From the IMG/VR virus record IMGVR_UViG_3300037400_004242: a DNA stretch of 64,000 nucleotides, one strand, 5' to 3'. The notes under the pieces are model-generated. The model searched no databases, was not told the origin of the DNA, and saw only the letters and a list, made by a program, of their open reading frames with translations. How positions within the stretch are numbered: the first letter of the stretch is position 1; the number at the start of each line of letters is the position of its first letter. Position numbers and translations under genes: made by a program. Below, one piece after another: positions 6,004 to 52,670 of the stretch. This DNA comes from a virus. Lineage: Duplodnaviria; Caudoviricetes.

Positions 6004-6696
6004 TTGAAACTTAAAATTGTAAAACCAAAACCAAAGTTTTATAGAATTTCTTATGCTATGTTGAAAAATGTTACGCAGAAAAAAGTTCAACCAGCAGAAG
6101 TTCAAAAAAATAATGTAACTGTAAAACAAACGGCAAAATTTGCAGATAAATATGATAAAATTGTTGATGAAGCAGTTCGTAAACATTTAATTGATGAATC
6201 AGATAGAGAAACTAAATTGTTAGAATTAAAATCTTTATCTGATGAAGAATTTAAACAGTATGAACAACAAGTAAATCAAGAAGAAAATATAAATGTTGAT
6301 AATATTGCTGAAAAAGAGCAAGAACAAGATAATATGACAGAAGCAGAAAAAGCTCTTGCTCGTATTCGTAAATCAGGTCCTATTATTGGAGATTTTTCTG
6401 ATGAATCAAATGTCACAGTTGCTAGTACAGGATTTAGTTCATCAGAGAATCGTTCTTTAGCAGATATAAAAGCAAAAAGACAATTAGATGTAAATTCATT
6501 TAATGAAGAAAATTTAATGGATGATGCATTAATGCATTTGGGACAAAAATTACAAAAAAAAGAACAAACCGCGAATGTTAAACCTATGGGGAATTTAAAA
6601 GGTTTGACAAAACCAATTGTTCATGAAAATCAACAATTTAAAAATAATATTTCTGATATATTTAGTAATTTAAATTGGACAATGGGAAGCAGGTAA
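6004..6696 (+). CDS. Putative scaffold / head assembly protein
   Basis: Charged helical protein between the protease and capsid genes; function inferred from position. Confidence 0.4.
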   Translation: MKLKIVKPKPKFYRISYAMLKNVTQKKVQPAEVQKNNVTVKQTAKFADKYDKIVDEAVRKHLIDESDRETKLLELKSLSDEEFKQYEQQVNQEENINVDNIAEKEQEQDNMTEAEKALARIRKSGPIIGDFSDESNVTVASTGFSSSENRSLADIKAKRQLDVNSFNEENLMDDALMHLGQKLQKKEQTANVKPMGNLKGLTKPIVHENQQFKNNISDIFSNLNWTMGSR

Positions 6697-17610: not shown

Positions 17611-19296
17611 ATGTTAAAAAGACATGAAGTTAGCGGACAAAAACAATTAAATATGGATGTTTACCAAGCGTTTCAAAAACGTATGGATTTTGTCGTGAAA
17701 GAATTTGATGTCATTAGTATTTCATTTTCAGGTGGTAAAGATAGTGGTGTTCTTTTGAATTTGGTTATGGACTATTTAAAAGAGCATAATATTAATGATA
17801 AAAAAGTATGTATTTTCCATCAAGACATGGAATGTCAATATCAAGCGACTTCTGACTACGTAGAAGAAACGTTTAAAGAATTTGCAGATAAAGCAGAATG
17901 TTATTGGTTTTGTCAGCCGATTGAATCAAGAAATGCATTGAGTATGTTTCAACATTATTGGTATCCGTGGGATGACGAATGTCCTGAAAAATGGACTAGA
18001 CCAATGCCCAATTATCCATATGTATACACATTGAAAAATAATCCATTTTCTTTATATGAATATAAAATGGAATATCATGAACATGCAGAAAAATTTGAAA
18101 TTTGGTTAAAACAAAAATATGGTGGAAGAGTAATTTCTCTTACAGGTATGCGTGCAAGTGAATCCTTAAATCGTTATCGTGCAGTTATAAATAAAGTGTG
18201 TTGTTATAAAGGTAAAAAATGGACGAAAGAAATTGATAAGGACGTTTATGTAGCATATCCAATTTATGATTGGACAGTCAATGATATATGGATAGCAAAT
18301 GCTAAATTTGGATATAAATATAATCATTTATATGATTTGTTTTATAAAGCAGGAGTTCCATTAACACAGATGCGTGTTGCTTCTCCTTTTCATGATGATG
18401 CCAAAAATGATTTAAATATGTATCGTGTAATTGACCCACAAATTTGGTCAAAACTTCTTTGTCGTGTAGAAGGTGTTAACTTCGCGGCAATTTATGGAAG
18501 AACAAAAGCGATGGGATGGAATAAAGTTACCATGCCAAAAGGTAAAACGTGGAAAGAATATAATAAATTTATTATTTTAACATTACCTGCGGAAACACGT
18601 CAAAATTATGTAGATAAATTTAATTTTTCTATTCAATTTTGGTTAACAAAAGGCTCAGGATTAAGTCAAGATATTATTCAAAAATTATATGATACTACTT
18701 GTTTGATAACAAATACATCATTTATGAATAAAGACGAAATTAATAATATAGACTATAGCATCACGAAAAATGAAAATGGAGAATATACTTTAAATTTCCC
18801 AAGTAATTTTAAAGATAATATTTTTCATTATACGTTCTTTGATAACGTAAAAGTAAGGGCAAAAGGAATTTTAAAAGATTTAAAAGGGGAACCGATTCAT
18901 CGTATTAATGCATTAGGAGAAGAAATAGAGGACGAATATCTTCCAGATATTTATGGAGAATACGAATATGTGTTAGATAAAAATAGCAGAATTTATACTG
19001 TGGAACAAGGAATTAAAGATTCAAAAACAGAAGAAGAAAAAGCGTTATATGATGAAAAAAACAAAGATGATGTTTGCCCAAAAATTTCACATTTTGGAAA
19101 ACATATGAACTTCCAGGTTATTTGTTCTATGATTGCTGATGAAACAGATGTATTGCAGGAGACACAAGCAGTAGCTTCATGGAAACGAATGACAATTTGT
19201 TTGCTAAAAAACGATTATCTTTGCAAATACATGGGTTTTGGATTAACAAAAGAACAACAGAAAAAAGTTAATTATATTAAAAATATGAGTAAATAA
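17611..19296 (+). CDS. PAPS reductase-family / DUF3440 protein (IbrA/YbdN-like)
   Basis: ISFSGGKDSG PP-loop, GMRASESLNRY, YPIYDW, MRVASPFH, RVEGVNF, SWKRM..CLLKNDYLCKYMGFG. Confidence 0.85.
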   Translation: MLKRHEVSGQKQLNMDVYQAFQKRMDFVVKEFDVISISFSGGKDSGVLLNLVMDYLKEHNINDKKVCIFHQDMECQYQATSDYVEETFKEFADKAECYWFCQPIESRNALSMFQHYWYPWDDECPEKWTRPMPNYPYVYTLKNNPFSLYEYKMEYHEHAEKFEIWLKQKYGGRVISLTGMRASESLNRYRAVINKVCCYKGKKWTKEIDKDVYVAYPIYDWTVNDIWIANAKFGYKYNHLYDLFYKAGVPLTQMRVASPFHDDAKNDLNMYRVIDPQIWSKLLCRVEGVNFAAIYGRTKAMGWNKVTMPKGKTWKEYNKFIILTLPAETRQNYVDKFNFSIQFWLTKGSGLSQDIIQKLYDTTCLITNTSFMNKDEINNIDYSITKNENGEYTLNFPSNFKDNIFHYTFFDNVKVRAKGILKDLKGEPIHRINALGEEIEDEYLPDIYGEYEYVLDKNSRIYTVEQGIKDSKTEEEKALYDEKNKDDVCPKISHFGKHMNFQVICSMIADETDVLQETQAVASWKRMTICLLKNDYLCKYMGFGLTKEQQKKVNYIKNMSK

Positions 19297-19333
19297 AAAA
19301 AGATACGTACACAAAAATGTACGTATCTTTTTT
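19295..19333. terminator. Bidirectional intrinsic terminator
   Basis: AAAAAAGATACGTACA-caaaaa-TGTACGTATCTTTTTT. Confidence 0.8.
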
Positions 19334-19341
19334 ATGCAAGC

Positions 19342-19536
19342 AAAAAGAGCAACATCAAACGGAAGAAAAATGTTGCTCTTGCAGAGAAAAGGAGAAATAA
19401 GCGAGTATGCCAAGAATCACTACTGGAAGAACGCTTTTTTATGAGAGATATGAACAGGAGGAATTATGATGAGAAAGCAAATATTTTTAGGAATATTTGT
19501 GTTTGAAAACTGTTTAAATCTCTCTATCTCGCTTAC
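19342..19536 (-). ncRNA. Candidate structured antisense small RNA (~195 nt)
   Basis: Perfect minus-strand promoter upstream; closing stem GTAAGCGAG/CTCGCTTAT and internal stems; CU-rich anti-SD segments; own terminator AAGAGCAACAT/ATGTTGCTCTT plus T-run. Confidence 0.6.
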
Positions 19537-19585
19537 ATGTTTATTATACTATGTAGTGGTAATTTTGTCAATCACTTTTTATTGA
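19466..19585 (+). CDS. Possible 39-aa hydrophobic peptide, antisense to the candidate sRNA
   Basis: AGGAGG RBS followed by MMRKQIFLGIFVFENCLNLSISLTCLLYYVVVILSITFY; may be non-coding. Confidence 0.25.
   Translation: MMRKQIFLGIFVFENCLNLSISLTCLLYYVVVILSITFY
19543..19571 (-). promoter_or_regulatory. Consensus sigmaA/sigma70 promoter
   Basis: Minus strand reads TTGACA-17 nt-TATAAT. Confidence 0.8.
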
Positions 19586-19607
19586 AAAATTTGATATATG
19601 ATATAAT

Positions 19608-20123
19608 ATGTGTGGTGAGAGAAAAATGTTAAAACAGATTCCAAATACAAAACATATATATTATGCAGATAAAAATGGAAATATTTACAATAATAAAAAA
19701 GAAAAGAAAAAATGTCATTTAGATAAAGATGGATATTTAATTACTTCTATTGATGGAAAAAGTAAAAAAGTACATCGTTTAATTTTGGGAACTTTTGTTA
19801 TAAATAAAAATAATTATCCAATGGTAAATCATATTAATGGAGTTAAAAATGATAATCGACTTTGTAATTTAGAATGGGTATCATCTTCTCAAAATGTATA
19901 TAAGGCACATCATGAAACAAAAACTAGAATTGCAGGTATTAATACAGGAATGAAAGCTGTTCCTGTGATTTGTATTGAAATTTTAACAAATGCCATGTAT
20001 AATTATAATAGTATTTCAGAAGCAAGTAGAGCCTTGAAAATACCTGAATATATGATAAGTCGTTGTGTAAATGGAAAACGTAAATCAGCGAAAGGTTTTA
20101 TGTTTAAAAAAAAGGAGAATTAA
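19608..20123 (+). CDS. HNH homing endonuclease with C-terminal NUMOD1-like HTH
   Basis: VHRLI...VNHINGVKNDNRLCNLEWV; YNSISEASRAL. Confidence 0.85.
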   Translation: MCGERKMLKQIPNTKHIYYADKNGNIYNNKKEKKKCHLDKDGYLITSIDGKSKKVHRLILGTFVINKNNYPMVNHINGVKNDNRLCNLEWVSSSQNVYKAHHETKTRIAGINTGMKAVPVICIEILTNAMYNYNSISEASRALKIPEYMISRCVNGKRKSAKGFMFKKKEN

Positions 20124-20125
20124 TT

Positions 20126-20701
20126 ATGGAAAAGAAAAATGAAACTGAAGAGCAAGAATTTGTTTCACCTGTCTATCATGTTCGCTGTGTACCTGTTGAA
20201 AAATTAGTTGCAAATGAATATAATCCTAACCACGTAGCTCCCGAAGAATTTAAGCTTCTGTACGATTCAATTAAATGTGATGGTTATACTATGCCAATTG
20301 TTACATATTATCGTAAAGAAGACGATATGTACGAAATTGTTGATGGTTTTCATAGATATTCTATTATGAAAAGATATGATGATATTCGAGAACGTGAACA
20401 TGGATGTTTGCCTGTTGTTGTAATTGATAAGCCTTTGGAAGAACGCATGGCATCAACTGTAAGGCATAATCGAGCTAGGGGCACGCATGATGTAGACCTT
20501 ATGAGTAATATTGTTGGAGAACTTCATAAACTTGGTCGTGAAGATGCTTGGATTGAAAAGCATTTAGGCATGTCAGAAGATGAAGTACTTCGTTTAAAAC
20601 AGATTACAGGACTTGCAGAATTGTTTAGAGATAAAGAATTTTCTCAGGCGTGGACAACAGAAGATAATATCTCTGTAAATGGGGAGGAAGTTGAAGAATG
20701 A
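20126..20701 (+). CDS. ParB/Srx-like protein (IbrB/YbdM-like)
   Basis: ANEYNPNHVAPEEFKLLYDSIKCDGYTMPIV, IVDGFHRY, RMASTVRHNRARGTH. Confidence 0.85.
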   Translation: MEKKNETEEQEFVSPVYHVRCVPVEKLVANEYNPNHVAPEEFKLLYDSIKCDGYTMPIVTYYRKEDDMYEIVDGFHRYSIMKRYDDIREREHGCLPVVVIDKPLEERMASTVRHNRARGTHDVDLMSNIVGELHKLGREDAWIEKHLGMSEDEVLRLKQITGLAELFRDKEFSQAWTTEDNISVNGEEVEE

Positions 20702-21873
20702 AAATCTTTACAGATGATATGAAAATAGATGATGAAGAATGGAAAGATATTGATGAAACATATAAAATTAGTAATTTTGGAAGAGTAATATTTTTTAGAA
20801 ATAAAAAATGGTATTTATCGAATGTAAAGAATGATAGAGTATCTATTCATGCAAAAAAAATGCAGGTGAGCACTTTAGTATTAAAAACATTTAAAAATAT
20901 TGAATTAACAAGTAAAGAATATATTAAACACTTAGATGGGAATGAAGAAAATAATTGTATAGAAAATTTAATTGTTGATACAAAATCAAATAGGTATAAA
21001 CAGCTTGCAAAAGAAGGTAAGTTTGATAATTTTATTCATTCTACAACAAAGAACAATGTATTGATAGAACCATATGAATATACAGATGAAAACAATGTTA
21101 AATGGAAGTCGATTCATGGATATGAAGGATTGTATGAAATAGGAACAAATGGACATATTAAATATTTAACAAAAGATGGTTCAAAACATAATATGTCTAT
21201 CAATAACAATGGTAAAAAAGGATATTTAATTGTTCAATTAAGAAAAAATGGGCAACGTTCAAGTGAACTTGTACATCGCTTAGTTATGGAAAATTTTCAT
21301 CCACTTGAAAATATGAATGATTTGCAAGTAAATCATATTGATGGAAATAATAAAAATAATGATATTTCTAATTTAGAGTGGGTAACTGCAAAAGAAAATA
21401 TGAAACATGCAAATGATAACGGATTAGTTAATAACCAATCTGTATTTTTTAAATATAAGGGGAAAGAATATTTTCATATTCATGAGATAATGAAAGAATA
21501 TGATTTATCCGTTCAGGAAGCACAAAATGTTGTAGAACGAGTTCCAATTCGTGAAGCTGTATATGTAAAACGATGGAAAATTGAGAATGATTTACCAAAT
21601 GAAAAATGGGAAATTGTAGAAGGGTATAATTGCGAAATATCTAATTATGGAAGATGTTTGACTTATGTTGATAACCATCGCTTTAAATGTACATTAAAAC
21701 AGATTAGAAAAGATAAATATTATAATTTAACAGATATGTATGGACATCGTAAAGATTATATGATTGCAAAATTAGTACTTCATGCGTTTACAGATTATCA
21801 AGATGAAAAGATTCAATATAAAGATGGTAACGAATTAAATTTTAAATTAGAGAATTTAATATGGAAAAAATAA
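20698..21873 (+). CDS. NUMOD4/HNH homing endonuclease with three tandem NUMOD4-HNH units
   Basis: Three WK.I..Y.ISN.GR-type repeats; central VHRLV...VNHIDGNNKNNDISNLEW intact, flanking copies degenerate. Confidence 0.8.
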   Translation: MKIFTDDMKIDDEEWKDIDETYKISNFGRVIFFRNKKWYLSNVKNDRVSIHAKKMQVSTLVLKTFKNIELTSKEYIKHLDGNEENNCIENLIVDTKSNRYKQLAKEGKFDNFIHSTTKNNVLIEPYEYTDENNVKWKSIHGYEGLYEIGTNGHIKYLTKDGSKHNMSINNNGKKGYLIVQLRKNGQRSSELVHRLVMENFHPLENMNDLQVNHIDGNNKNNDISNLEWVTAKENMKHANDNGLVNNQSVFFKYKGKEYFHIHEIMKEYDLSVQEAQNVVERVPIREAVYVKRWKIENDLPNEKWEIVEGYNCEISNYGRCLTYVDNHRFKCTLKQIRKDKYYNLTDMYGHRKDYMIAKLVLHAFTDYQDEKIQYKDGNELNFKLENLIWKK

Positions 21874-39035: not shown

Positions 39036-40727
39036 ATGCAAAGCAACATCAAAATGGAAGATTGCTTTCCATATTCAAAGGCTAGACCAGCACAAGAAGA
39101 TATTTTAAAGTCATTAGACAAAATTTATTCATATGATGATAAATATCGTTATATTGTAATTGAAGCTGGTACAGGAATTGGAAAATCTGCAATTGCTAAG
39201 TCAATTTCAAAGAAAGAAAAGACTTGCTATCTTTTGACAGCAACAAAACAGTTGCAAGACCAATATATTCATGATTTTGGGAATATGGGGGCAAGTGCTG
39301 TCAAAGGTTCTGTAAATTACGAATGTGCAGTTGATGATACGCTTGATTGTTCCAATGGAGCGTGTAAACTTTCCTTGGATGGTATGCGTTCACGTTGCTA
39401 TGCAGATAAGGCTTGTCCATATCAAAACGCAAAGCAAAAAGCGGATGCATCAGAAATGTTTGTTACATCTTATGCATATTTTCTTCGTGTTAGTCGAGGA
39501 AATAATACATCATTCAAATCTAGGAATGTTATTATTGTTGACGAATGTCATATGCTAGAAGACCAGCTTATTAATTGCGCTGGTTTTACTTTGAATCCTG
39601 AAAAAATGAATCATAGGTATCAAATTCATCATGGAATGGATTTCAAAACAATGGTGCTATATAAGCATATGCCAAATCCTGATGATGAACAGCAAATGAT
39701 TCAATGGATTTTCTTAGTTAAAAAATTAATTGCAAAACGCATGGAAATTTTTCAAAAATCTATATTCGCAGCTCGTTATGGTGACAGAAGTCAAATGACT
39801 GCGGATGAACTAAGTGATGTAGAAGATTTGGACATCAAAGATACATCACAAAAACTTGAAGAATTAAAGCGTTTATATGAAAAAATTATTAAATTTTTAA
39901 ATGAAGAAGATAAAAGTAATTGGGTAATGTCTGTAAAAGATAAACAGATTTCTGTAAAACCAATTAATGTAGATGGTTTGTTTAAACAACTAATTGATAA
40001 ATTTGCAATCCATAAAGTTGTTTTTATGTCTGCAACGATTCTTGATAAAGTTGGATTTTGTAATGATATGGGAATTGAAGCAGATAAAACTTGTTTTGTT
40101 ACTAGAGACGGTGTTTTCTCTGCGAAACGTTCACCGATTGTATATGACCCTGTAGGTTCTATGAGTTACAAAAACATTAATTTCACAATGCCATATGTAA
40201 TTGATGAAATTAAACGTATTATGGAACTGTATCCGAACGAAAAAGGAATTATTCATACAGCTACATATAATATTGCGCAACAAATTACAGAAGCTATTAA
40301 AAGTGATAGATTTGTAGTAAGAGAGCATGATGAATCAAATGAAGATTTGTTTCAATATCATGCGCAATCTGATAAACCTACAATTTTAGTTAGTCCATCG
40401 CTGATGGCAGGTGTGGATTTACATGATGATTTAAGTAGATTTCAGATTGTAGTAAAACTTCCTTATATTTCTCTTGCAGATGAAAGAGTAAAACGTAAAA
40501 TGCAAAAGAATCAAAAATGGTATACATGCAAGATGTTGCGTAATTTAGTTCAGGAATGTGGTAGAAGTACAAGAAACGAAAAAGATTGGTCAGTTACTTA
40601 TATTTTAGATAATGCTTTTGAAAAAACAGTTTATTTTAATAAAAAAATGCTGTCACCACATTTTTTGAATCGTATTGTGAATGTTAATAATTTTAAGGTT
40701 CAAGAGTATCGTAATTTGGTGAAATAA
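39036..40727 (+). CDS. DinG/Rad3-family SF2 helicase with Fe-S cluster
   Basis: RPAQ, EAGTGIGKS, 4-Cys cluster region, DECH, MSAT, GVDLHDD, KLPY, QECGRSTR. Confidence 0.9.
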   Translation: MQSNIKMEDCFPYSKARPAQEDILKSLDKIYSYDDKYRYIVIEAGTGIGKSAIAKSISKKEKTCYLLTATKQLQDQYIHDFGNMGASAVKGSVNYECAVDDTLDCSNGACKLSLDGMRSRCYADKACPYQNAKQKADASEMFVTSYAYFLRVSRGNNTSFKSRNVIIVDECHMLEDQLINCAGFTLNPEKMNHRYQIHHGMDFKTMVLYKHMPNPDDEQQMIQWIFLVKKLIAKRMEIFQKSIFAARYGDRSQMTADELSDVEDLDIKDTSQKLEELKRLYEKIIKFLNEEDKSNWVMSVKDKQISVKPINVDGLFKQLIDKFAIHKVVFMSATILDKVGFCNDMGIEADKTCFVTRDGVFSAKRSPIVYDPVGSMSYKNINFTMPYVIDEIKRIMELYPNEKGIIHTATYNIAQQITEAIKSDRFVVREHDESNEDLFQYHAQSDKPTILVSPSLMAGVDLHDDLSRFQIVVKLPYISLADERVKRKMQKNQKWYTCKMLRNLVQECGRSTRNEKDWSVTYILDNAFEKTVYFNKKMLSPHFLNRIVNVNNFKVQEYRNLVK

Positions 40728-43179: not shown

Positions 43180-43329
43180 AGGCGTACCCTTTCCGTTACA
43201 AATTTCAAAAATATTATATGAAAAGTATTATTATATATTACAAGTAATTATTTTGCAACTTTTTGTACAAATATATCATAAAGTGTTTAATTTGACATAT
43301 ATTTAATACAGGATGGAGGTGAAATAATA

Positions 43330-44637
43330 TTGAAACTTAGTTCAAATACAAAGAAGAAAACTATTTCATTTTACTCATATCATTTAAATCATGAGAAATA
43401 TGAACAGATTGAAAATTTAGCAAAACAAATTCAAGCATATCAAAATTTCATTTCTGAGATTTACTACAACACTTATTTTCAGAAACAAAAGATTTCTTGT
43501 GGTAAATTCATCACAGAAATGAAAATATATCGTGATAAGGAATTTTCCTCTTCATTTTTTCAACAGATATGTAAACAAGTATATGAAAAATATGAAAAGA
43601 AAAAACCTCCAAAACAGCAAGTGGTTTTCAAGAAATTATCCTTTGTTGGTATCAATCTAATGACAAAACCTTTTATTGAAGAAAGCAACAACAAATATAC
43701 AAACGGAATTATCAATTTTAATATACCTAAACAAGGAGTAATTTGTATTCCATTTAGATATTCAAAAAAGTATCATGGTGATTTGTCAGATATTACTTAT
43801 TCCATGACAGGTGCAAACAAATCTCAATTTCAAAAACTGTATACTTGTACATTGTTAGGTAAAGATAAACTAAAAATTACTATTGTCGAGGATGATAACA
43901 GAACATATACTACATCAATCAATCACATCGAAGGTATAGATGTAAATGTAAAACATAACCTTTTACAATGTTCTGATGGATTTTCTGTAGATTATGATAG
44001 AAAATTTGTTACTAAAATTATTAAACAAAGAAAAAAGTATGATAGAATTGTATCTACCAAAATGAAAAGAAACATTGACCATACAATGACTGAAAAACAA
44101 TATCATTTAAGTAAGAAAAATTCACGAAGAAGTATTTCTATGGTGGAACAATGTTTGGTAAAATTATTTAAGCATTGTAATAAAAATGGTATTGACCATT
44201 TAGTTTTTGAAGATTTAGGTAAGTTTACAGGTAGACTAAAAATTACCAACAAAGAATTTGATGTTAACTATAAACGACTAATGTACGCAGTTAAACTTGT
44301 AGATATTAAAAACATTGCAGAACGAATTGGAAAGAAATATGGAATCACAATATCTTTAACCAATCCTGAATATACAAGTCAAGAATGCAGTTGTTGTCAT
44401 CATATTTCTAAAAAGAATAGGCAAACGCAAGAATTGTTTAAATGTGAAAATTGTGGATTTGAATTAAATGCAGACTTAAATGCATCCATCAATATAAAAA
44501 ACAGGATTCTCTCAAACGTTTTGAGAGAATCCTGTCATCAGGAAATTGAACCAAATAAATTCATTCCAATTTACAAGAACTACGAAGAATTTAAAACAGC
44601 ATACATAGAATTAATTAAACAAAATACCGTATCTTGA
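43330..44637 (+). CDS. tnpB: TnpB RNA-guided endonuclease (IS200/IS605 or IS607 type), no adjacent transposase
   Basis: RuvC-I GIDVN, RuvC-II VFEDL, Zn finger TSQECSCC..FKCENCG, RuvC-III NADLNASINI. Confidence 0.9.
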   Translation: MKLSSNTKKKTISFYSYHLNHEKYEQIENLAKQIQAYQNFISEIYYNTYFQKQKISCGKFITEMKIYRDKEFSSSFFQQICKQVYEKYEKKKPPKQQVVFKKLSFVGINLMTKPFIEESNNKYTNGIINFNIPKQGVICIPFRYSKKYHGDLSDITYSMTGANKSQFQKLYTCTLLGKDKLKITIVEDDNRTYTTSINHIEGIDVNVKHNLLQCSDGFSVDYDRKFVTKIIKQRKKYDRIVSTKMKRNIDHTMTEKQYHLSKKNSRRSISMVEQCLVKLFKHCNKNGIDHLVFEDLGKFTGRLKITNKEFDVNYKRLMYAVKLVDIKNIAERIGKKYGITISLTNPEYTSQECSCCHHISKKNRQTQELFKCENCGFELNADLNASINIKNRILSNVLRESCHQEIEPNKFIPIYKNYEEFKTAYIELIKQNTVS

Positions 44638-44700
44638 AAAAAAAAGATTAAGGTGAGCATAGTAACAATGCTTTGAATTTGGAATTCTAAACAAAATTAT
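44501..44700 (+). ncRNA. Probable TnpB omegaRNA (reRNA) overlapping the tnpB 3' end; boundaries approximate
   Basis: Perfect 16-bp hairpin ACAGGATTCTCTCAAA-cgt-TTTGAGAGAATCCTGT (44501-44535) right after RuvC-III, with small hairpins after the stop. Confidence 0.4.
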
Positions 44701-44775
44701 ACATATTTATTCTTATTTATATGTAATTTTGACGTTATTTAAAATAGTAATTTTTGAAGAAAGGGTTGTTTTTCG

Positions 44776-45934: not shown

Positions 45935-48643
45935 ATGTTAAATAAAGATATAACATTTTCATTAGATAGTTACGATAAGAAAAAATTCAAGCATGAAGTA
46001 TATGACCACAAGGATGTTTTCTATAGTAGAGAATATATTTATAATTTTAAATTTACAGTAAATATAGATAAAAATGAAATGCCAATTAATCATTTAATTA
46101 TTTATCGTAATGGTGAACCATATAACAATTGTAAGATTATACAAGTTGGGAATAAATCTTATGAGGTTAAAGATGATGTATGGATTCGTTATGGAAACAC
46201 ATGTTATGGTGTAGATGTCGTTCTTGAAGGTGGAAAAACATATCATAATTATTTCTATTTGAAAATTTTACAATCATATCAGCCAAATGATATTCGTTTT
46301 ATAAGTTTTGCAACGTATGGATTACATGAAAATTATTCTATGTTGGATGTAATTGCAAACATTCAGACAAAATATCAAATTGATAGAGTTTTATTATATG
46401 AACATATTTGTCCATTGACAGAGATAGATGAAAAAAGTCGTATATCTAAAATAAGTGAAATGAATGAAAGATATGATTCCAAAGAAATTAAATGGAATTA
46501 TTTGGGAAAAATGGATTTAATAAATCATCAATATCGTTTTCGTTATATGTTGTTTGATACGTCATTAACTGAGAATCGTACAGTATTATATAAGGCTGTA
46601 GTCGTAACAACAAATGAAGTTCGTAGAAGTGCAATTATGTCTACCATTATTAAACCTAATACAATGTCTGTTAATATATTTACATATATGAATACAGAAA
46701 CAAAAGAAAGATACGATATATATGGTGGATGTGTAGGACGTATTGATGCAAAAATTGATGAATACGACAATCCTGAATATAATGGCAAGATTTTTCAACT
46801 TTTAATAGATAAAAGAGACGATGAACAAAATTATTTAAAGTTGCTTGTCGGCGATGATTATAAATTTGAAGCAGATAATTATCATGTTGAATATAAAAGA
46901 AAGAAATTTAATCGTGTACAAACAAATCGTGACCCTAATATTTTTGAAATTTATGGTGATGGATTGGCTACAAAAGTTATTAATGAGGAAAGAGATTTAT
47001 ATCGTAGAGATAATTGTAGATTTTTAGTAACTTTATATTGCGGTGAAGATACTTTTGTTTCATTTAAAATTACTCCATTAAATGATAATAATTTGGCTGT
47101 TAACACGAATAAGACAGAAAATAATATTGTAAAATATTCTTATAATGGTGAATCCAAGATTATGGATAAACAATATTTGGATAAGACTGTAGATGTAAAT
47201 GCAATTCAAGGATATTATACATATAATAGAAAAACAGAAAATCTAATTTTTACAAATATTGATACAAAGGAACAACATATTACAATTATTCCTGATAAGC
47301 CAAAAGAATTATTGTTTCAGGAATTTGATTACATTACATATAACGATAAATATTTTTTCTTTGTCAACTTAGATAATAAAGGAATCCATATTACACGTTA
47401 TGATGGCGTTAATATTGATAAAATTGAATATTTTACAGAGATTATTAAGAGTTCATTAGATTGGATAAAGTCTCAGCAAATATTAAGTTTTGATAAAAAT
47501 AATAATTTAAATTTGAAATTTATATCTTCTAATGGCAGTAATTTTTTAAAGAAAATTGTTGTAGAAAATAATGATTTATCAGTTATTGATTATAGTGATA
47601 TGTTAGTAAATGTATTTAATGATATTCGTAAGCAGATGTTAAATTATGTTGATAATTTAAATTCTGTGACCGTTGGAAAAGTCGAATATATTATTAAAGC
47701 ATCAAATGTTTATGATACATTAGAGCATAAATTTGAGGATATGGGATATACGGATTTTAATTTGAAATTTACGACGCAATATTTTACATATCAAATCAAA
47801 TTCCCAATAGATGTTAAATTTTTAAACAAGACAACAAATGTTTATGTTCGTTTTCAAACGTCTATGACTGTTACTTGTAGAGAAGATGTTATTTTTTATG
47901 AGACGAATTATAGCTTAGGAAATCCAAGATTCGATATTGATATTGATAGTATTAATTTAACATATCATTATACAGATAATGGGAAAAATTTAATTCCTCA
48001 AGTTGGGTATGAAAAATTAAATCAAAAATATTTCTTGAAATTTAGTCAACCTGTAAACACATATACAAAAGAAGATTATGCAATTTTTAAACGTTGCGAT
48101 ATATATAATGGTGGAGCTAGTCTTTATAAGATAAATCCCGAAGATGTATATGGAAATGGGACAAAAGAAAAAACATTTAGGTATTCAGATTTATGTAGAC
48201 TACGTATTTTTATGCTAAATTATAAAGAGTACATGATTATGCGTTTTATGGGTGATAAATGCATGATGACAGTTGTTAATGTAGAATTGAAAGAGCAAAT
48301 ATCACAAGAAACTATTACAACAGATATGTATTTCGATAGTTTGTTCTATTTTACGAAAGAACAGCTTGTATCATTAGATGATTTGTTAAGTAGTGCATAT
48401 TTATATGATTCTGTAAAACGAAAAATGTATATTTGTGCATTGAGTGATTGTTATGTATTAGCTGTTGGTGGAACATATGATACATCATTTCATAATATGG
48501 AGAAATCGACTAGTTTAAGTGGTATTCCGTTAGATAATATGAAAACATATTTGTCTGAATATGAATTTAGTTATCCATTAAACATTAAAAATCGTAATCA
48601 TTATTTAAATGATATAGTCTTTAGTGAAGGGGTATATTCATGA
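45935..48643 (+). CDS. Large beta-rich hypothetical protein, possibly structural
   Basis: 902 aa, Tyr/Asn-rich; GAAAGGAG RBS; coupled to rSAM locus II by ATGA overlap. Confidence 0.6.
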   Translation: MLNKDITFSLDSYDKKKFKHEVYDHKDVFYSREYIYNFKFTVNIDKNEMPINHLIIYRNGEPYNNCKIIQVGNKSYEVKDDVWIRYGNTCYGVDVVLEGGKTYHNYFYLKILQSYQPNDIRFISFATYGLHENYSMLDVIANIQTKYQIDRVLLYEHICPLTEIDEKSRISKISEMNERYDSKEIKWNYLGKMDLINHQYRFRYMLFDTSLTENRTVLYKAVVVTTNEVRRSAIMSTIIKPNTMSVNIFTYMNTETKERYDIYGGCVGRIDAKIDEYDNPEYNGKIFQLLIDKRDDEQNYLKLLVGDDYKFEADNYHVEYKRKKFNRVQTNRDPNIFEIYGDGLATKVINEERDLYRRDNCRFLVTLYCGEDTFVSFKITPLNDNNLAVNTNKTENNIVKYSYNGESKIMDKQYLDKTVDVNAIQGYYTYNRKTENLIFTNIDTKEQHITIIPDKPKELLFQEFDYITYNDKYFFFVNLDNKGIHITRYDGVNIDKIEYFTEIIKSSLDWIKSQQILSFDKNNNLNLKFISSNGSNFLKKIVVENNDLSVIDYSDMLVNVFNDIRKQMLNYVDNLNSVTVGKVEYIIKASNVYDTLEHKFEDMGYTDFNLKFTTQYFTYQIKFPIDVKFLNKTTNVYVRFQTSMTVTCREDVIFYETNYSLGNPRFDIDIDSINLTYHYTDNGKNLIPQVGYEKLNQKYFLKFSQPVNTYTKEDYAIFKRCDIYNGGASLYKINPEDVYGNGTKEKTFRYSDLCRLRIFMLNYKEYMIMRFMGDKCMMTVVNVELKEQISQETITTDMYFDSLFYFTKEQLVSLDDLLSSAYLYDSVKRKMYICALSDCYVLAVGGTYDTSFHNMEKSTSLSGIPLDNMKTYLSEYEFSYPLNIKNRNHYLNDIVFSEGVYS

Positions 48644-50819: not shown

Positions 50820-52397
50820 ATGGCGATATGTACGGACACAAAATATGTAGAGGGATTTTATCAAATTGTAGAACCTCCACAATTTTTAAAAGACATGTTT
50901 CCAATTTGTAGACCTTTTGGTGACCCCGGTGATGACAAAAGTTATGAATTCGGGAGTAGTTATTGGAGCGGGTTCGATTCTACTTCTCGTGATGAAGCAT
51001 CAAGTCGTGGATTAAGTAATCGTAAAGGTCGTTTAAAAGATTCTTTTAGTGTTACAGATAAAGTTACGAATAAAGATTGGAACTGTGCAATTGTAAAATT
51101 GAAACAAGAATTTGCTATTCGTTGCGGTTTTAAGCATAATTGGATTCCATTTGTAGAACAAACGGGAGATTTTGGATTATCCAATCATTTAGGATATTTC
51201 CGTGATGGTATTAAAGGCGGAAGTGATGGTGATAGTGACCCAACGCAAGGCGAAAAAACGGATATTGTATATCGTAGAGATATGCAAAAAATATACTTAG
51301 ATATTATTCGTTTGCTAGACTATGAAGTTCCAATGTATTCCGTAGAAGATGGAAGCAAAAATCCTCGTTTCCCAGAGTTTAGAGGTATTTTTTCTAATGA
51401 TTATGGTAAAGTTGGGGACTACAATTCTATTTTAAAAGAAATTGTTGATATTGATGATGCTGATAAATTTTTAAAACAAGGGAATAATGTGTTTTTACCT
51501 CCTGATAATAAAGCATCTGAGAAAAAATGGAAATATTTTCATTTAAATGATAATGTTATTGGCTATCCTGGTGAACCAGCTTCTTCTTGTGCAAAATATG
51601 AAGGAAAATTAGAGAGTTTTGGTGATAACTATCCACCTGGTGGTTCAATTAACATTGACCAGCTAAACGATTGGGAAAGTCGTTATACATTAGGTACTGA
51701 TGCATATGATTTTAAAAAAATGACCAAGAAACGTATTTTGCAATTCATTGGTGCGTCTCAACCTTGGTATCGTAAGTCCGATTCATTATTGGATTGGGAC
51801 GATGGTATTTTTATTGATTATTGGCAACCAAAAAGAGATACTGATGATTTCGCATACGCTCAAGAAATAGTTCCTAATACATATTATCCATATGGAAATA
51901 AGGATTATACAGAAGATGGTGGAGCAGGTGGAAAAGAACCAAAGCCATCAGCATTATATAAAGCTGTACAAGAATTTAGAAAGAAATTTATAAATCCTGC
52001 AAAAGAAACTACAGATAATGATTTATTAGTTTCTGCCAAAATTTCAAAAACAGCTACAGTTGATAGAGATTTATATGGTAATCCAATTACACAAACTGTA
52101 GAAGAAGATGCATCATTTTCAGTAGCATATGTTATGAGACATGCTTATACAGAGTTTCAAACGGTAGATAAATATGGCGATGATGGAAAACTAATTAGTA
52201 GAATGACAATCGGCGGTGATAAAATTATCGTTGATGCTAACTCTGTCGCAAATGTGTTTATGAAAACAATAAATAAAATTTCAGATATTTGCGTTTGTAA
52301 CTGCAATTATTGTTCTTGCTTTGGTAATGAAGTTACATGCTTATGCTATGTTGTTAAGGTAACAGGTTGGTGCTATTCATACATGTATGTATATTAA
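50820..52397 (+). CDS. Protein with Cys-rich C-terminus, putative structural protein and rSAM substrate
   Basis: Ends ICVCNCNYCSCFGNEVTCLCYVVKVTGWCYSYMYVY (8 Cys); follows the SPASM pair; Gly/Asp-rich body. Confidence 0.6.
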   Translation: MAICTDTKYVEGFYQIVEPPQFLKDMFPICRPFGDPGDDKSYEFGSSYWSGFDSTSRDEASSRGLSNRKGRLKDSFSVTDKVTNKDWNCAIVKLKQEFAIRCGFKHNWIPFVEQTGDFGLSNHLGYFRDGIKGGSDGDSDPTQGEKTDIVYRRDMQKIYLDIIRLLDYEVPMYSVEDGSKNPRFPEFRGIFSNDYGKVGDYNSILKEIVDIDDADKFLKQGNNVFLPPDNKASEKKWKYFHLNDNVIGYPGEPASSCAKYEGKLESFGDNYPPGGSINIDQLNDWESRYTLGTDAYDFKKMTKKRILQFIGASQPWYRKSDSLLDWDDGIFIDYWQPKRDTDDFAYAQEIVPNTYYPYGNKDYTEDGGAGGKEPKPSALYKAVQEFRKKFINPAKETTDNDLLVSAKISKTATVDRDLYGNPITQTVEEDASFSVAYVMRHAYTEFQTVDKYGDDGKLISRMTIGGDKIIVDANSVANVFMKTINKISDICVCNCNYCSCFGNEVTCLCYVVKVTGWCYSYMYVY

Positions 52398-52410: not shown

Positions 52411-52670
52411 TTCAGTAACCCACGAATAAATTCGTGGGATTGTGGTAGAAATATCACAATCCTTTGCTGAATAGCCTAAGTCTTAACTGACTACGTTGTT
52501 ATCGTTATCACACCCTAGTGCGTATGCTTTAACGCTAGGCTCTGTAAAAGTTCTAAGAGGTAGGAACAGTCAACCAGACGTAGACCGATTACGGCAAGCG
52601 ATTATAACATTGGCTAAGAGTAACCAACTCAAGAATAAAGTTATTTATAACTTTAGGAAGGAGGTAGACT
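52411..52670 (+). ncRNA. IscB omegaRNA (HEARO-like)
   Basis: TTCAGTAA pairs with TTGCTGAA; CCCACGAA/TTCGTGGG hairpin; characteristic AGCCTAAGTCTTAACTGACTACGTT and AACATTGGC segments directly upstream of iscB. Confidence 0.8.

Follow-up and report, generated by a model that had tools for sequence, protein, structure and literature searches.

The window analysed here, i.e. the whole 64,000-nt stretch of phage DNA, is AT-rich (~27% GC) and almost all of its ORFs of at least 90 aa are encoded on the plus strand. Positions 19297-19607 form an intergenic gap of 311 nt; such a long non-coding gap is unusual, the phage being gene-dense. Upstream of the gap, on the plus strand, lies a gene encoding an IbrA-like protein (PAPS-reductase/DUF3440; 17611-19296). 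Downstream, also on the plus strand, follows a gene encoding an I-HmuI-like HNH endonuclease with a likely start at 19626 (mostly called as a protein of 165 aa in relatives) and, after it, a gene encoding a ParB-N (IbrB-like) protein of 191 aa in the window. Genes encoding IbrA-like and IbrB-like (ParB-N) proteins are usually adjacent, and here (17611-20701) they are split by the free-standing HNH homing-endonuclease gene, which has its own extended -10 promoter. This promoter (TGATATAAT) and the RBS GGTGAGAG are located at 19599-19625 on the plus strand and are divergent from the minus-strand promoter described below. A second HNH gene (20698-21873) is found after the ParB gene. In many strains (L015, L016, L021-L026, L028, L051, L057 and L068) HNH and ParB-N are called as a single fusion protein of 358 or 364 aa (I-HmuI_NUMOD-like plus ParB_N), equivalent to 19626-20701 of the window; the window itself has two ORFs instead, one of 165 and one of 191 aa.

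An IbrA protein identical to that of the window is recorded on a contig of 223.6 kb, and the nearest relative in IMG/VR is a contig of 174.5 kb (G001, the record of contig L001) that is rated 35% complete. Therefore, this is a large phage, one of gut or rumen, which seems to have its genes on one strand. The unit studied here, a predicted small RNA (sRNA) gene on the minus strand, sits inside the 311-nt gap.

The minus-strand RNA unit

An earlier note, made from the letters of the window, had placed a TTGACA-17-TATAAT promoter on the minus strand. It is indeed found at 19571-19543 and matches the sigma-70/sigma-A consensus in 12 of 12 positions; in its context it reads TTGACA(AAA)-17-TATAAT, with a predicted start at approximately 19536-19538. 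In the 64 kb of the window two perfect promoter sites were observed versus 0.33 expected, and a count of two was reached by 2 of 100 shuffles; the second site precedes the helicase gene at 39036. The minus-strand promoter is unchanged across the 41 copies of the gap that are described below. A search of the 174-kb relative with the pattern TTGACA-N16-18-TATAAT revealed eight perfect promoters in forward direction (6508, 6673, 16337, 79090, 98394, 151368, 151825 and 161579) and none in reverse direction, and the control pattern, which was read backwards, gave no match. The form TTGACAA, as present in the window unit, was found in six of the eight. Five of these promoters precede genes with an RBS, among them a gene encoding an HU-like protein, and the other three (6508, 6673 and 16337) are followed by no more than short stretches ending in a hairpin terminator, candidates for sRNA genes. 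Two of these three, at 6508 and 6673, are arranged in tandem and are near-identical. Since eight forward matches stand against no reverse and no control match, consensus host-type promoters are evidently in use in this phage group, short RNAs included. The perfect-promoter unit of the window alone points backwards, in contrast to all eight forward promoters of the relative. The minus-strand promoter is probably functional. Should the RNA be produced, small RNA genes would, besides early proteins, be served by the group's consensus host-type promoters.

The earlier note had described the stretch behind this promoter as a unit of about 195 nt with its own terminator, and this description held. 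No ORF led by a start codon is found on the minus strand from the predicted start at ~19537, and the predicted transcript of approximately 190 nt (19345-19537), whose structure was obtained by folding and by RNAalifold, ends with an intrinsic terminator. The nested stems were recovered as well: the closing stem P1 (GUAAGCGAG/CUCGCUUAU) pairs 19536-19528 with 19405-19397 and starts 1-2 nt from the 5' end, P2 (GAGAGAU/AUCUCUC) pairs 19524-19518 with 19449-19443, P3' (AACAG/CUGUU) is nested inside P1, and a hairpin of 8 bp (CAAAUAUU/AAUAUUUG) is formed by 19499-19492 with 19485-19478. Without the terminators, the body of the sRNA folds with -26 kcal/mol (z -2.6; 4 of 200 shuffles were equally good) and the plus strand of the same body gave a z of -2.46. 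Therefore, the structure is modest and not strand-specific, and folding energy neither proves the RNA nor distinguishes between the strands.

With both terminator hairpins included, the unit as a whole has a z of -8.35, most of which is due to these hairpins. The intrinsic terminator of the minus strand (19381-19345) consists of an 11-bp stem with a 14-nt loop, followed by UUUUUGCUU (-16.5 kcal/mol, z -5.4); it was missed by a simple terminator scan because of the 14-nt loop. On the plus strand this hairpin is followed by UGCAGAG and not by a U-tract, and since the U-tract is present on the minus strand only, the hairpin can serve only a minus-strand transcript. The other terminator (19333-19296) is bidirectional: its 17-bp stem lies between runs of A and T, and the z is -9.5 on each strand. 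For the plus strand it is the terminator of the IbrA-like gene, and for the minus strand it is a second stop behind the terminator of the sRNA. Its loop (19312-19317) reads CAAAAA in 35 copies and the reverse complement TTTTTG in six, a hairpin-loop flip polymorphism.

Two segments of the RNA, CAUAAUUCCUCCU and UUUCUCCUUUUCUC, had been described as anti-Shine-Dalgarno (anti-SD) sequences. Both were confirmed and are for the most part unpaired in the predicted structure, and they are the complements of the plus-strand sequences AGGAGG-N4-ATG (19456-19468) and GGAG-N12-ATG (19391-19410), respectively. The 20 nt located 3' of the 8-bp hairpin (CUUUCUCAUCAUAAUUCCUC, continuing into CU) are unpaired in the minimum-energy and in the centroid fold, and the segment CUUUCUCAUCAUAAUUCCUC is perfectly complementary to the SD and two AUGs of a plus-strand frame of 39 codons. 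UUUCUCCUUUUCUC (19396-19383) is single-stranded between the closing stem and the terminator hairpin. In view of the promoter quality, of a terminator specific to this strand, of the missing ORF and of similar units in the relative, we consider it likely that a minus-strand RNA is made from this unit. It would then be an example of RNA-level regulation in large uncultured gut or rumen phages, in which non-coding genes are almost unstudied.

Plus-strand frames and possible targets of the RNA

The AGGAGG and the small hydrophobic ORF that the earlier note had seen on the opposite strand are both present. The AGGAGG (19456-19461) is followed by AATT, ATGATG and a hydrophobic frame of 39 codons (ORF39, 19466-19585), and the whole element (19456-19585, plus strand) is the candidate cis target of the RNA, which is predicted to overlap codons 1-24, the SD and the leader. 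The peptide starts with MMRKQ followed by hydrophobic residues, and its charges are confined to the N-terminus. ORF39 has the sole AGGAGG-ATG in the 64 kb that opens a frame of at least 39 codons; the frame remained open in 4.6% of dinucleotide shuffles, and a full AGGAGG is used by only one of the 64 putative gene starts checked. Further, ORF39 was intact in 39 of 39 full copies. [quoted passage not shown]

This cis-antisense reading is weakened by the lack of a promoter, by the upstream terminator and by the non-coding codon usage of ORF39. ORF39 lies behind the strong terminator at 19296-19333, and no plus-strand promoter with at least 9 of 12 matches was found between terminator and ORF39 (19334-19455); the nearest plus-strand site of this quality (19441-19470) would start transcription past the ATG of ORF39. 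The candidate late motif TAT...TAGA is absent from the gap, which contains no TAGA. A codon log-odds model, for which 50 genes of the window served as training set, gave ORF39 a score of -0.26 per codon. This score lies at the 0.1 percentile of 39-codon windows from real genes and equals the median of spurious (out-of-frame and antisense) ORFs. An HMMER scan of 1.84 billion representative proteins revealed no homologue, and no family was matched in Pfam, PHROGs or NCBIfam at E<=1. The four variable sites of ORF39 comprise three amino-acid changes and one silent change and are too few to give dN/dS any power.

Alternatively, ORF39 could be an ordinary gene for a small membrane protein that shares a transcript with the HNH gene; in this case, the promoter on the minus strand would be incidental or inactive. 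It is oriented like nearly all genes of the window, has the strongest SD of the region at the correct spacing and is intact in all copies, and a gap of 311 nt without coding function is unusual in a gene-dense phage. However, an ordinary gene is hard to reconcile with a frame that has no promoter, lies behind a strong terminator, has a non-coding codon usage and is without homologues; moreover, the perfect promoter and the minus-strand-specific terminator would be left unexplained. We consider this explanation very improbable.

The "second RBS" of the earlier note turned out not to be a gene start. It consists of GGAG (19391-19394)-N12-ATG and a short frame from 19408 (19391-19470, plus strand), and this frame is not a conserved ORF: it is broken by a T-run (19435-19440) with four length alleles, of which those with 5, 6, 7 and 8 T give frames of 32, 20, 12 and 37 codons, respectively. 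This bears on the possibility that a genuine RNA is made whose action is in trans. AAUUCCUCCUG and UUUCUCCUUUUCUC would then pair with SD/start regions of host or phage mRNAs, and RBS and ORF on the plus strand would be the mirror image of the seed. The evidence from promoter and terminator is the same for both modes of action. The second SD-like motif precedes no conserved frame, so that at least one of the two motifs is better explained as a feature of the RNA, and ORF39, with its non-coding codon usage and neither promoter nor homologue, fits a mirror image; however, an open frame of 39 codons behind a mirror-image SD-AUG would be expected in only ~5-10% of cases.

Silencing of phage mRNAs, which the earlier note had proposed besides that of host mRNAs, was not borne out, since there was no target enrichment among phage start regions. 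Duplex energies of the whole RNA with the start regions of the window were those of shuffled RNAs, and for the first segment (seed 1) 48% of the shuffles did as well, which argues against trans action on phage genes. In favour of it, the second segment (seed 2) pairs at ~-20 kcal/mol with two start regions, those of the gene at 45935 and of the helicase gene at 39036, and is better than 96% of shuffled seeds, a marginal effect (p ~0.04 before correction). The phage genes use ordinary GGAG-type SDs, and the RNA could thus not tell host from phage; for the same reason, a host-selective "SD sponge" was ruled out. On balance, a trans-acting anti-SD sRNA is a tentative explanation and in our view nearly as likely as the cis-antisense reading.

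Distribution and variation of the cassette

Exact-protein look-ups of HNH and IbrA variants yielded 41 copies of the gap from many samples, the window counted. The cassette is present on every contig with an IbrA that is at least 97% identical. It is 99% identical throughout, and the aligned stretch of 355 nt (19271-19625) comprises 18 distinct sequences among the 41 copies. For the sRNA there are six distinct versions at 99% identity, and no stem position varies; since the copies are 99% identical, no covariation signal is obtainable from them. None of the variable sites in the body of the RNA (19360, 19429, the T-run, 19504 and 19516) falls within a stem, a promoter hexamer or an anti-SD segment: 19360 is in the terminator loop, 19429 in the body of the sRNA, and 19504 (silent in ORF39) and 19516 (L17F in ORF39) are unpaired in the RNA. 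The sites 19574 and 19575, which change ORF39 to T37A and T37I, lie just upstream of the -35 hexamer. The invariance of stems, hexamers and anti-SD bases is suggestive only, given the few changes in these sequences. Conservation of the cassette is no greater than that of adjacent 200-nt bins, and divergence is mosaic along the region. In the HNH promoter region, 16 of 39 copies, that of the window among them, have a 7-nt duplication (TGATATA; 19592-19598 of the window).

In the nearest sister lineage (IbrA 92%) the cassette is absent and the whole gap differs; there, a different terminator abuts TATATAATATATGTGGTGA, i.e. the -10 box and RBS of the HNH gene. The position 19598/19599 (GATATAA^TATGTG, in the HNH -10 box) is a recurrent insertion site for IS607/IS605-type elements in other strains. 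Among contigs of the sister lineage, L001 has at the HNH promoter site a GC-rich TnpB of the IS605 type (405 aa) along with a structured RNA region, and L013 and L014 have a remnant of 283 nt of an internally deleted IS607-type element, of which both ends are kept. The IS607-type inserts encode a MerR-HTH serine-recombinase TnpA of 208 aa and a TnpB and are in reverse orientation. Contigs with IS607-type junctions cover one side (L005, L008 and L010) or the other (L058, L060 and L061) of the insertion, with the cassette kept to the left. Alternative cassettes in other strains were ruled out, the contigs concerned being IS607-type or IS605-type insertion junctions at 19598/19599. Judged from these comparisons, the 260-bp block 19337-19598 is a lineage-specific accessory indel beside an insertion hot spot. 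A strain-variable cassette of antisense RNA and peptide in the neighbourhood of an IS hot spot and a homing endonuclease would lend itself, as a small natural system, to studies of the gain and loss of modules of this kind.

An origin of the block from a MITE, an IS or an omega-RNA remnant was rejected: BLAST revealed no similarity to the element at 43229-44745 of the window, to the TnpB element of L001 or to HEARO, and there is no target duplication. The element at 43229-44745 is an IS607-like element with TnpB only, which encodes a Cas12f1-like TNB/OrfB_IS605 protein of 435 aa (43330-44637). Its ends match the L013 remnant with 92-93% and the L060 insert with 82%, and its right end reads ...AATTTTGACG, followed after the boundary by TTATTT. 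The HEARO (IscB omega-RNA) match of the window, with 102 bits, is at 52411-52628 on the plus strand, directly after an ORF of 525 aa (50820-52397) without Pfam match.

A scan of the window against Rfam at gathering thresholds gave this HEARO match at 52411 only; at permissive E-values, the best matches in the region of the sRNA were to unrelated eukaryotic families, with 24.6 bits versus a threshold of 50. A tRNA/tmRNA scan of the region gave nothing, and a covariance model of the sRNA (R1) found nothing in the window or in the 174-kb relative, to which the cassette showed no similarity by BLAST either. Distant and near DNA searches of GenBank phages gave no match to the cassette. In IMG/VR, the exact promoter pattern and the two-seed pattern were found zero times. 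The two-seed pattern had five matches in 185,579 species genomes, all by chance, and the 20-mer had seven matches in metagenome contigs, all of them chance RBS-start contexts. Among the databases searched, the cassette is, as far as sequence similarity goes, without relatives outside its own phage lineage. The sequence signals of the unit are rare, invariant among the copies and restricted to one lineage.

Another possibility is that no dedicated RNA function exists. The strong backward promoter and the two terminators would then only separate the IbrA operon from the HNH gene with its own promoter, as a transcriptional insulator or roadblock, or the block would be neutral filler left by recombination at a busy insertion site. 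The block adjoins a site that is repeatedly hit by IS607/IS605-type elements, the sister lineage lacks it and has its terminator abutting the HNH promoter, and the block evolves no slower than its neighbours and has no homologues in the databases searched. On the other hand, filler is unlikely to combine a perfect SD-ATG-ORF with a 12/12 promoter and, at a sensible distance from it, a strand-specific terminator, and an insulator would not need a structured body of 150 nt. All signals are invariant in the 41 copies, though overall diversity is low. Taken together, we regard insulator or filler as rather unlikely.

Proposed mechanism and comparison with known antisense systems

According to the favoured cis-antisense reading, the RNA polymerase of the host with its housekeeping sigma factor would make the RNA of ~190 nt from the consensus promoter, against the direction of all neighbouring genes. 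The RNA would be stabilised by the terminator hairpin at its 3' end and by the 5' stem, which begins 1-2 nt from where transcription is predicted to start, and it would pair with any plus-strand transcript leaking past the upstream terminator. Pairing would mask the SD and AUG of ORF39, block ribosome entry and create a substrate for RNase III, and the small membrane-type peptide would stay silent while host-type transcription is active. Transcription of the RNA, translation of ORF39 and any effect of the pairing are inferred.

A further-reaching version of the cis-antisense reading, which we regard as distinctly unlikely, takes the virulent look of the large phage into account. The antisense RNA, driven by the host sigma factor, would be an early lock on a membrane-active peptide of 39 residues; the RNA would decay when host-type transcription is shut off, and late read-through would free the peptide. 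In this case, the peptide might be, for example, a factor for lysis timing or host killing, and the logic of type I TA systems would have been repurposed as an infection timer on a strain-variable cassette.

Judged from its sequence, the unit is a well-formed, lineage-restricted prediction of an sRNA gene of a known general kind; it resembles arrangements in other phages and is plausibly a fairly ordinary antisense regulator. Type I TA pairs of Bacillota include bsrG/SR4 of B. subtilis and fst/RNA II of E. faecalis. In the type I TA systems of Bacillus and Enterococcus the RNA covers the 3' end, whereas the RNA predicted here covers the 5' end and the RBS. Phage-borne type I TA systems have a small hydrophobic ORF whose ATG is preceded at a distance of a few nt by AGGAGG and which is opposed by a sigma-A-driven antisense RNA, and the type I toxins of C. 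difficile have a positively charged C-terminal tail (PMC7699646). The small hydrophobic ORF, the AGGAGG near the ATG and the strong sigma-A antisense promoter are shared with CD0977.1/RCd11 of C. difficile and its relatives (PMC7699646). Common to the window and to the type I TA systems of Bacillota prophages is further a dispensable, unannotated cassette on a mobile genome. However, the peptide of ORF39 lacks the charged (lysine-rich) C-terminal tail of the C. difficile toxins, and, unlike in Bacillota type I TA systems, no toxin promoter was found here. Of the type I TA-like pair proposed in the earlier note, the antisense RNA gene over a small hydrophobic ORF stood in silico, but toxin promoter and similarity to a toxin family, both of which were tested, were not found; ORF39 has no similarity to Hok, Fst/Ldr, TxpA/BsrG, Ibs, ShoB or the C. 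difficile toxins in Pfam, PHROGs and NCBIfam. Further, the cassette seems to be carried by a large phage whose genes lie on one strand rather than by a resident prophage, so that a "maintenance" function makes little sense.

Trans-acting sRNAs of the RsaE/RoxS type in Bacillota have C/U-rich seeds with repeated UCCC/CCCC loops. Like these, the predicted RNA has pyrimidine-rich, unpaired anti-SD motifs and a rho-independent terminator. In contrast, its motifs are CCUCC and CUCC in an A/U-rich context, and there is no Rfam match to this type at any threshold.

Among phage RNAs, sar has a size of ~70 nt and is made from a strong promoter that reads backwards into an operon. The sar RNA of P22 is the classic case of antisense control of antirepressor synthesis, and the c4 RNA of P1/P7 masks a ribosome-binding region by sequences in its loops (PMC12197685). 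Like these, the predicted RNA is a short phage RNA with complementary sequences in unpaired or loop regions. The sar and c4 RNAs are shorter, however, belong to temperate phages of enterobacteria and have a known target, ant, whereas the frame in the window is an orphan of doubtful coding status; homology in sequence or structure to sar or c4 was not found with Rfam. The OOP RNA of lambda is antisense to an operon, the sense transcript of which it presumably exposes to cleavage by RNase III (PMC12197685). OOP differs from the predicted RNA in that it overlaps the 3' end of cII and not an RBS, and it is conserved in lambdoid phages, whereas the window unit is found in one lineage; both are self-contained antisense units, from promoter to terminator, directed against an operon.
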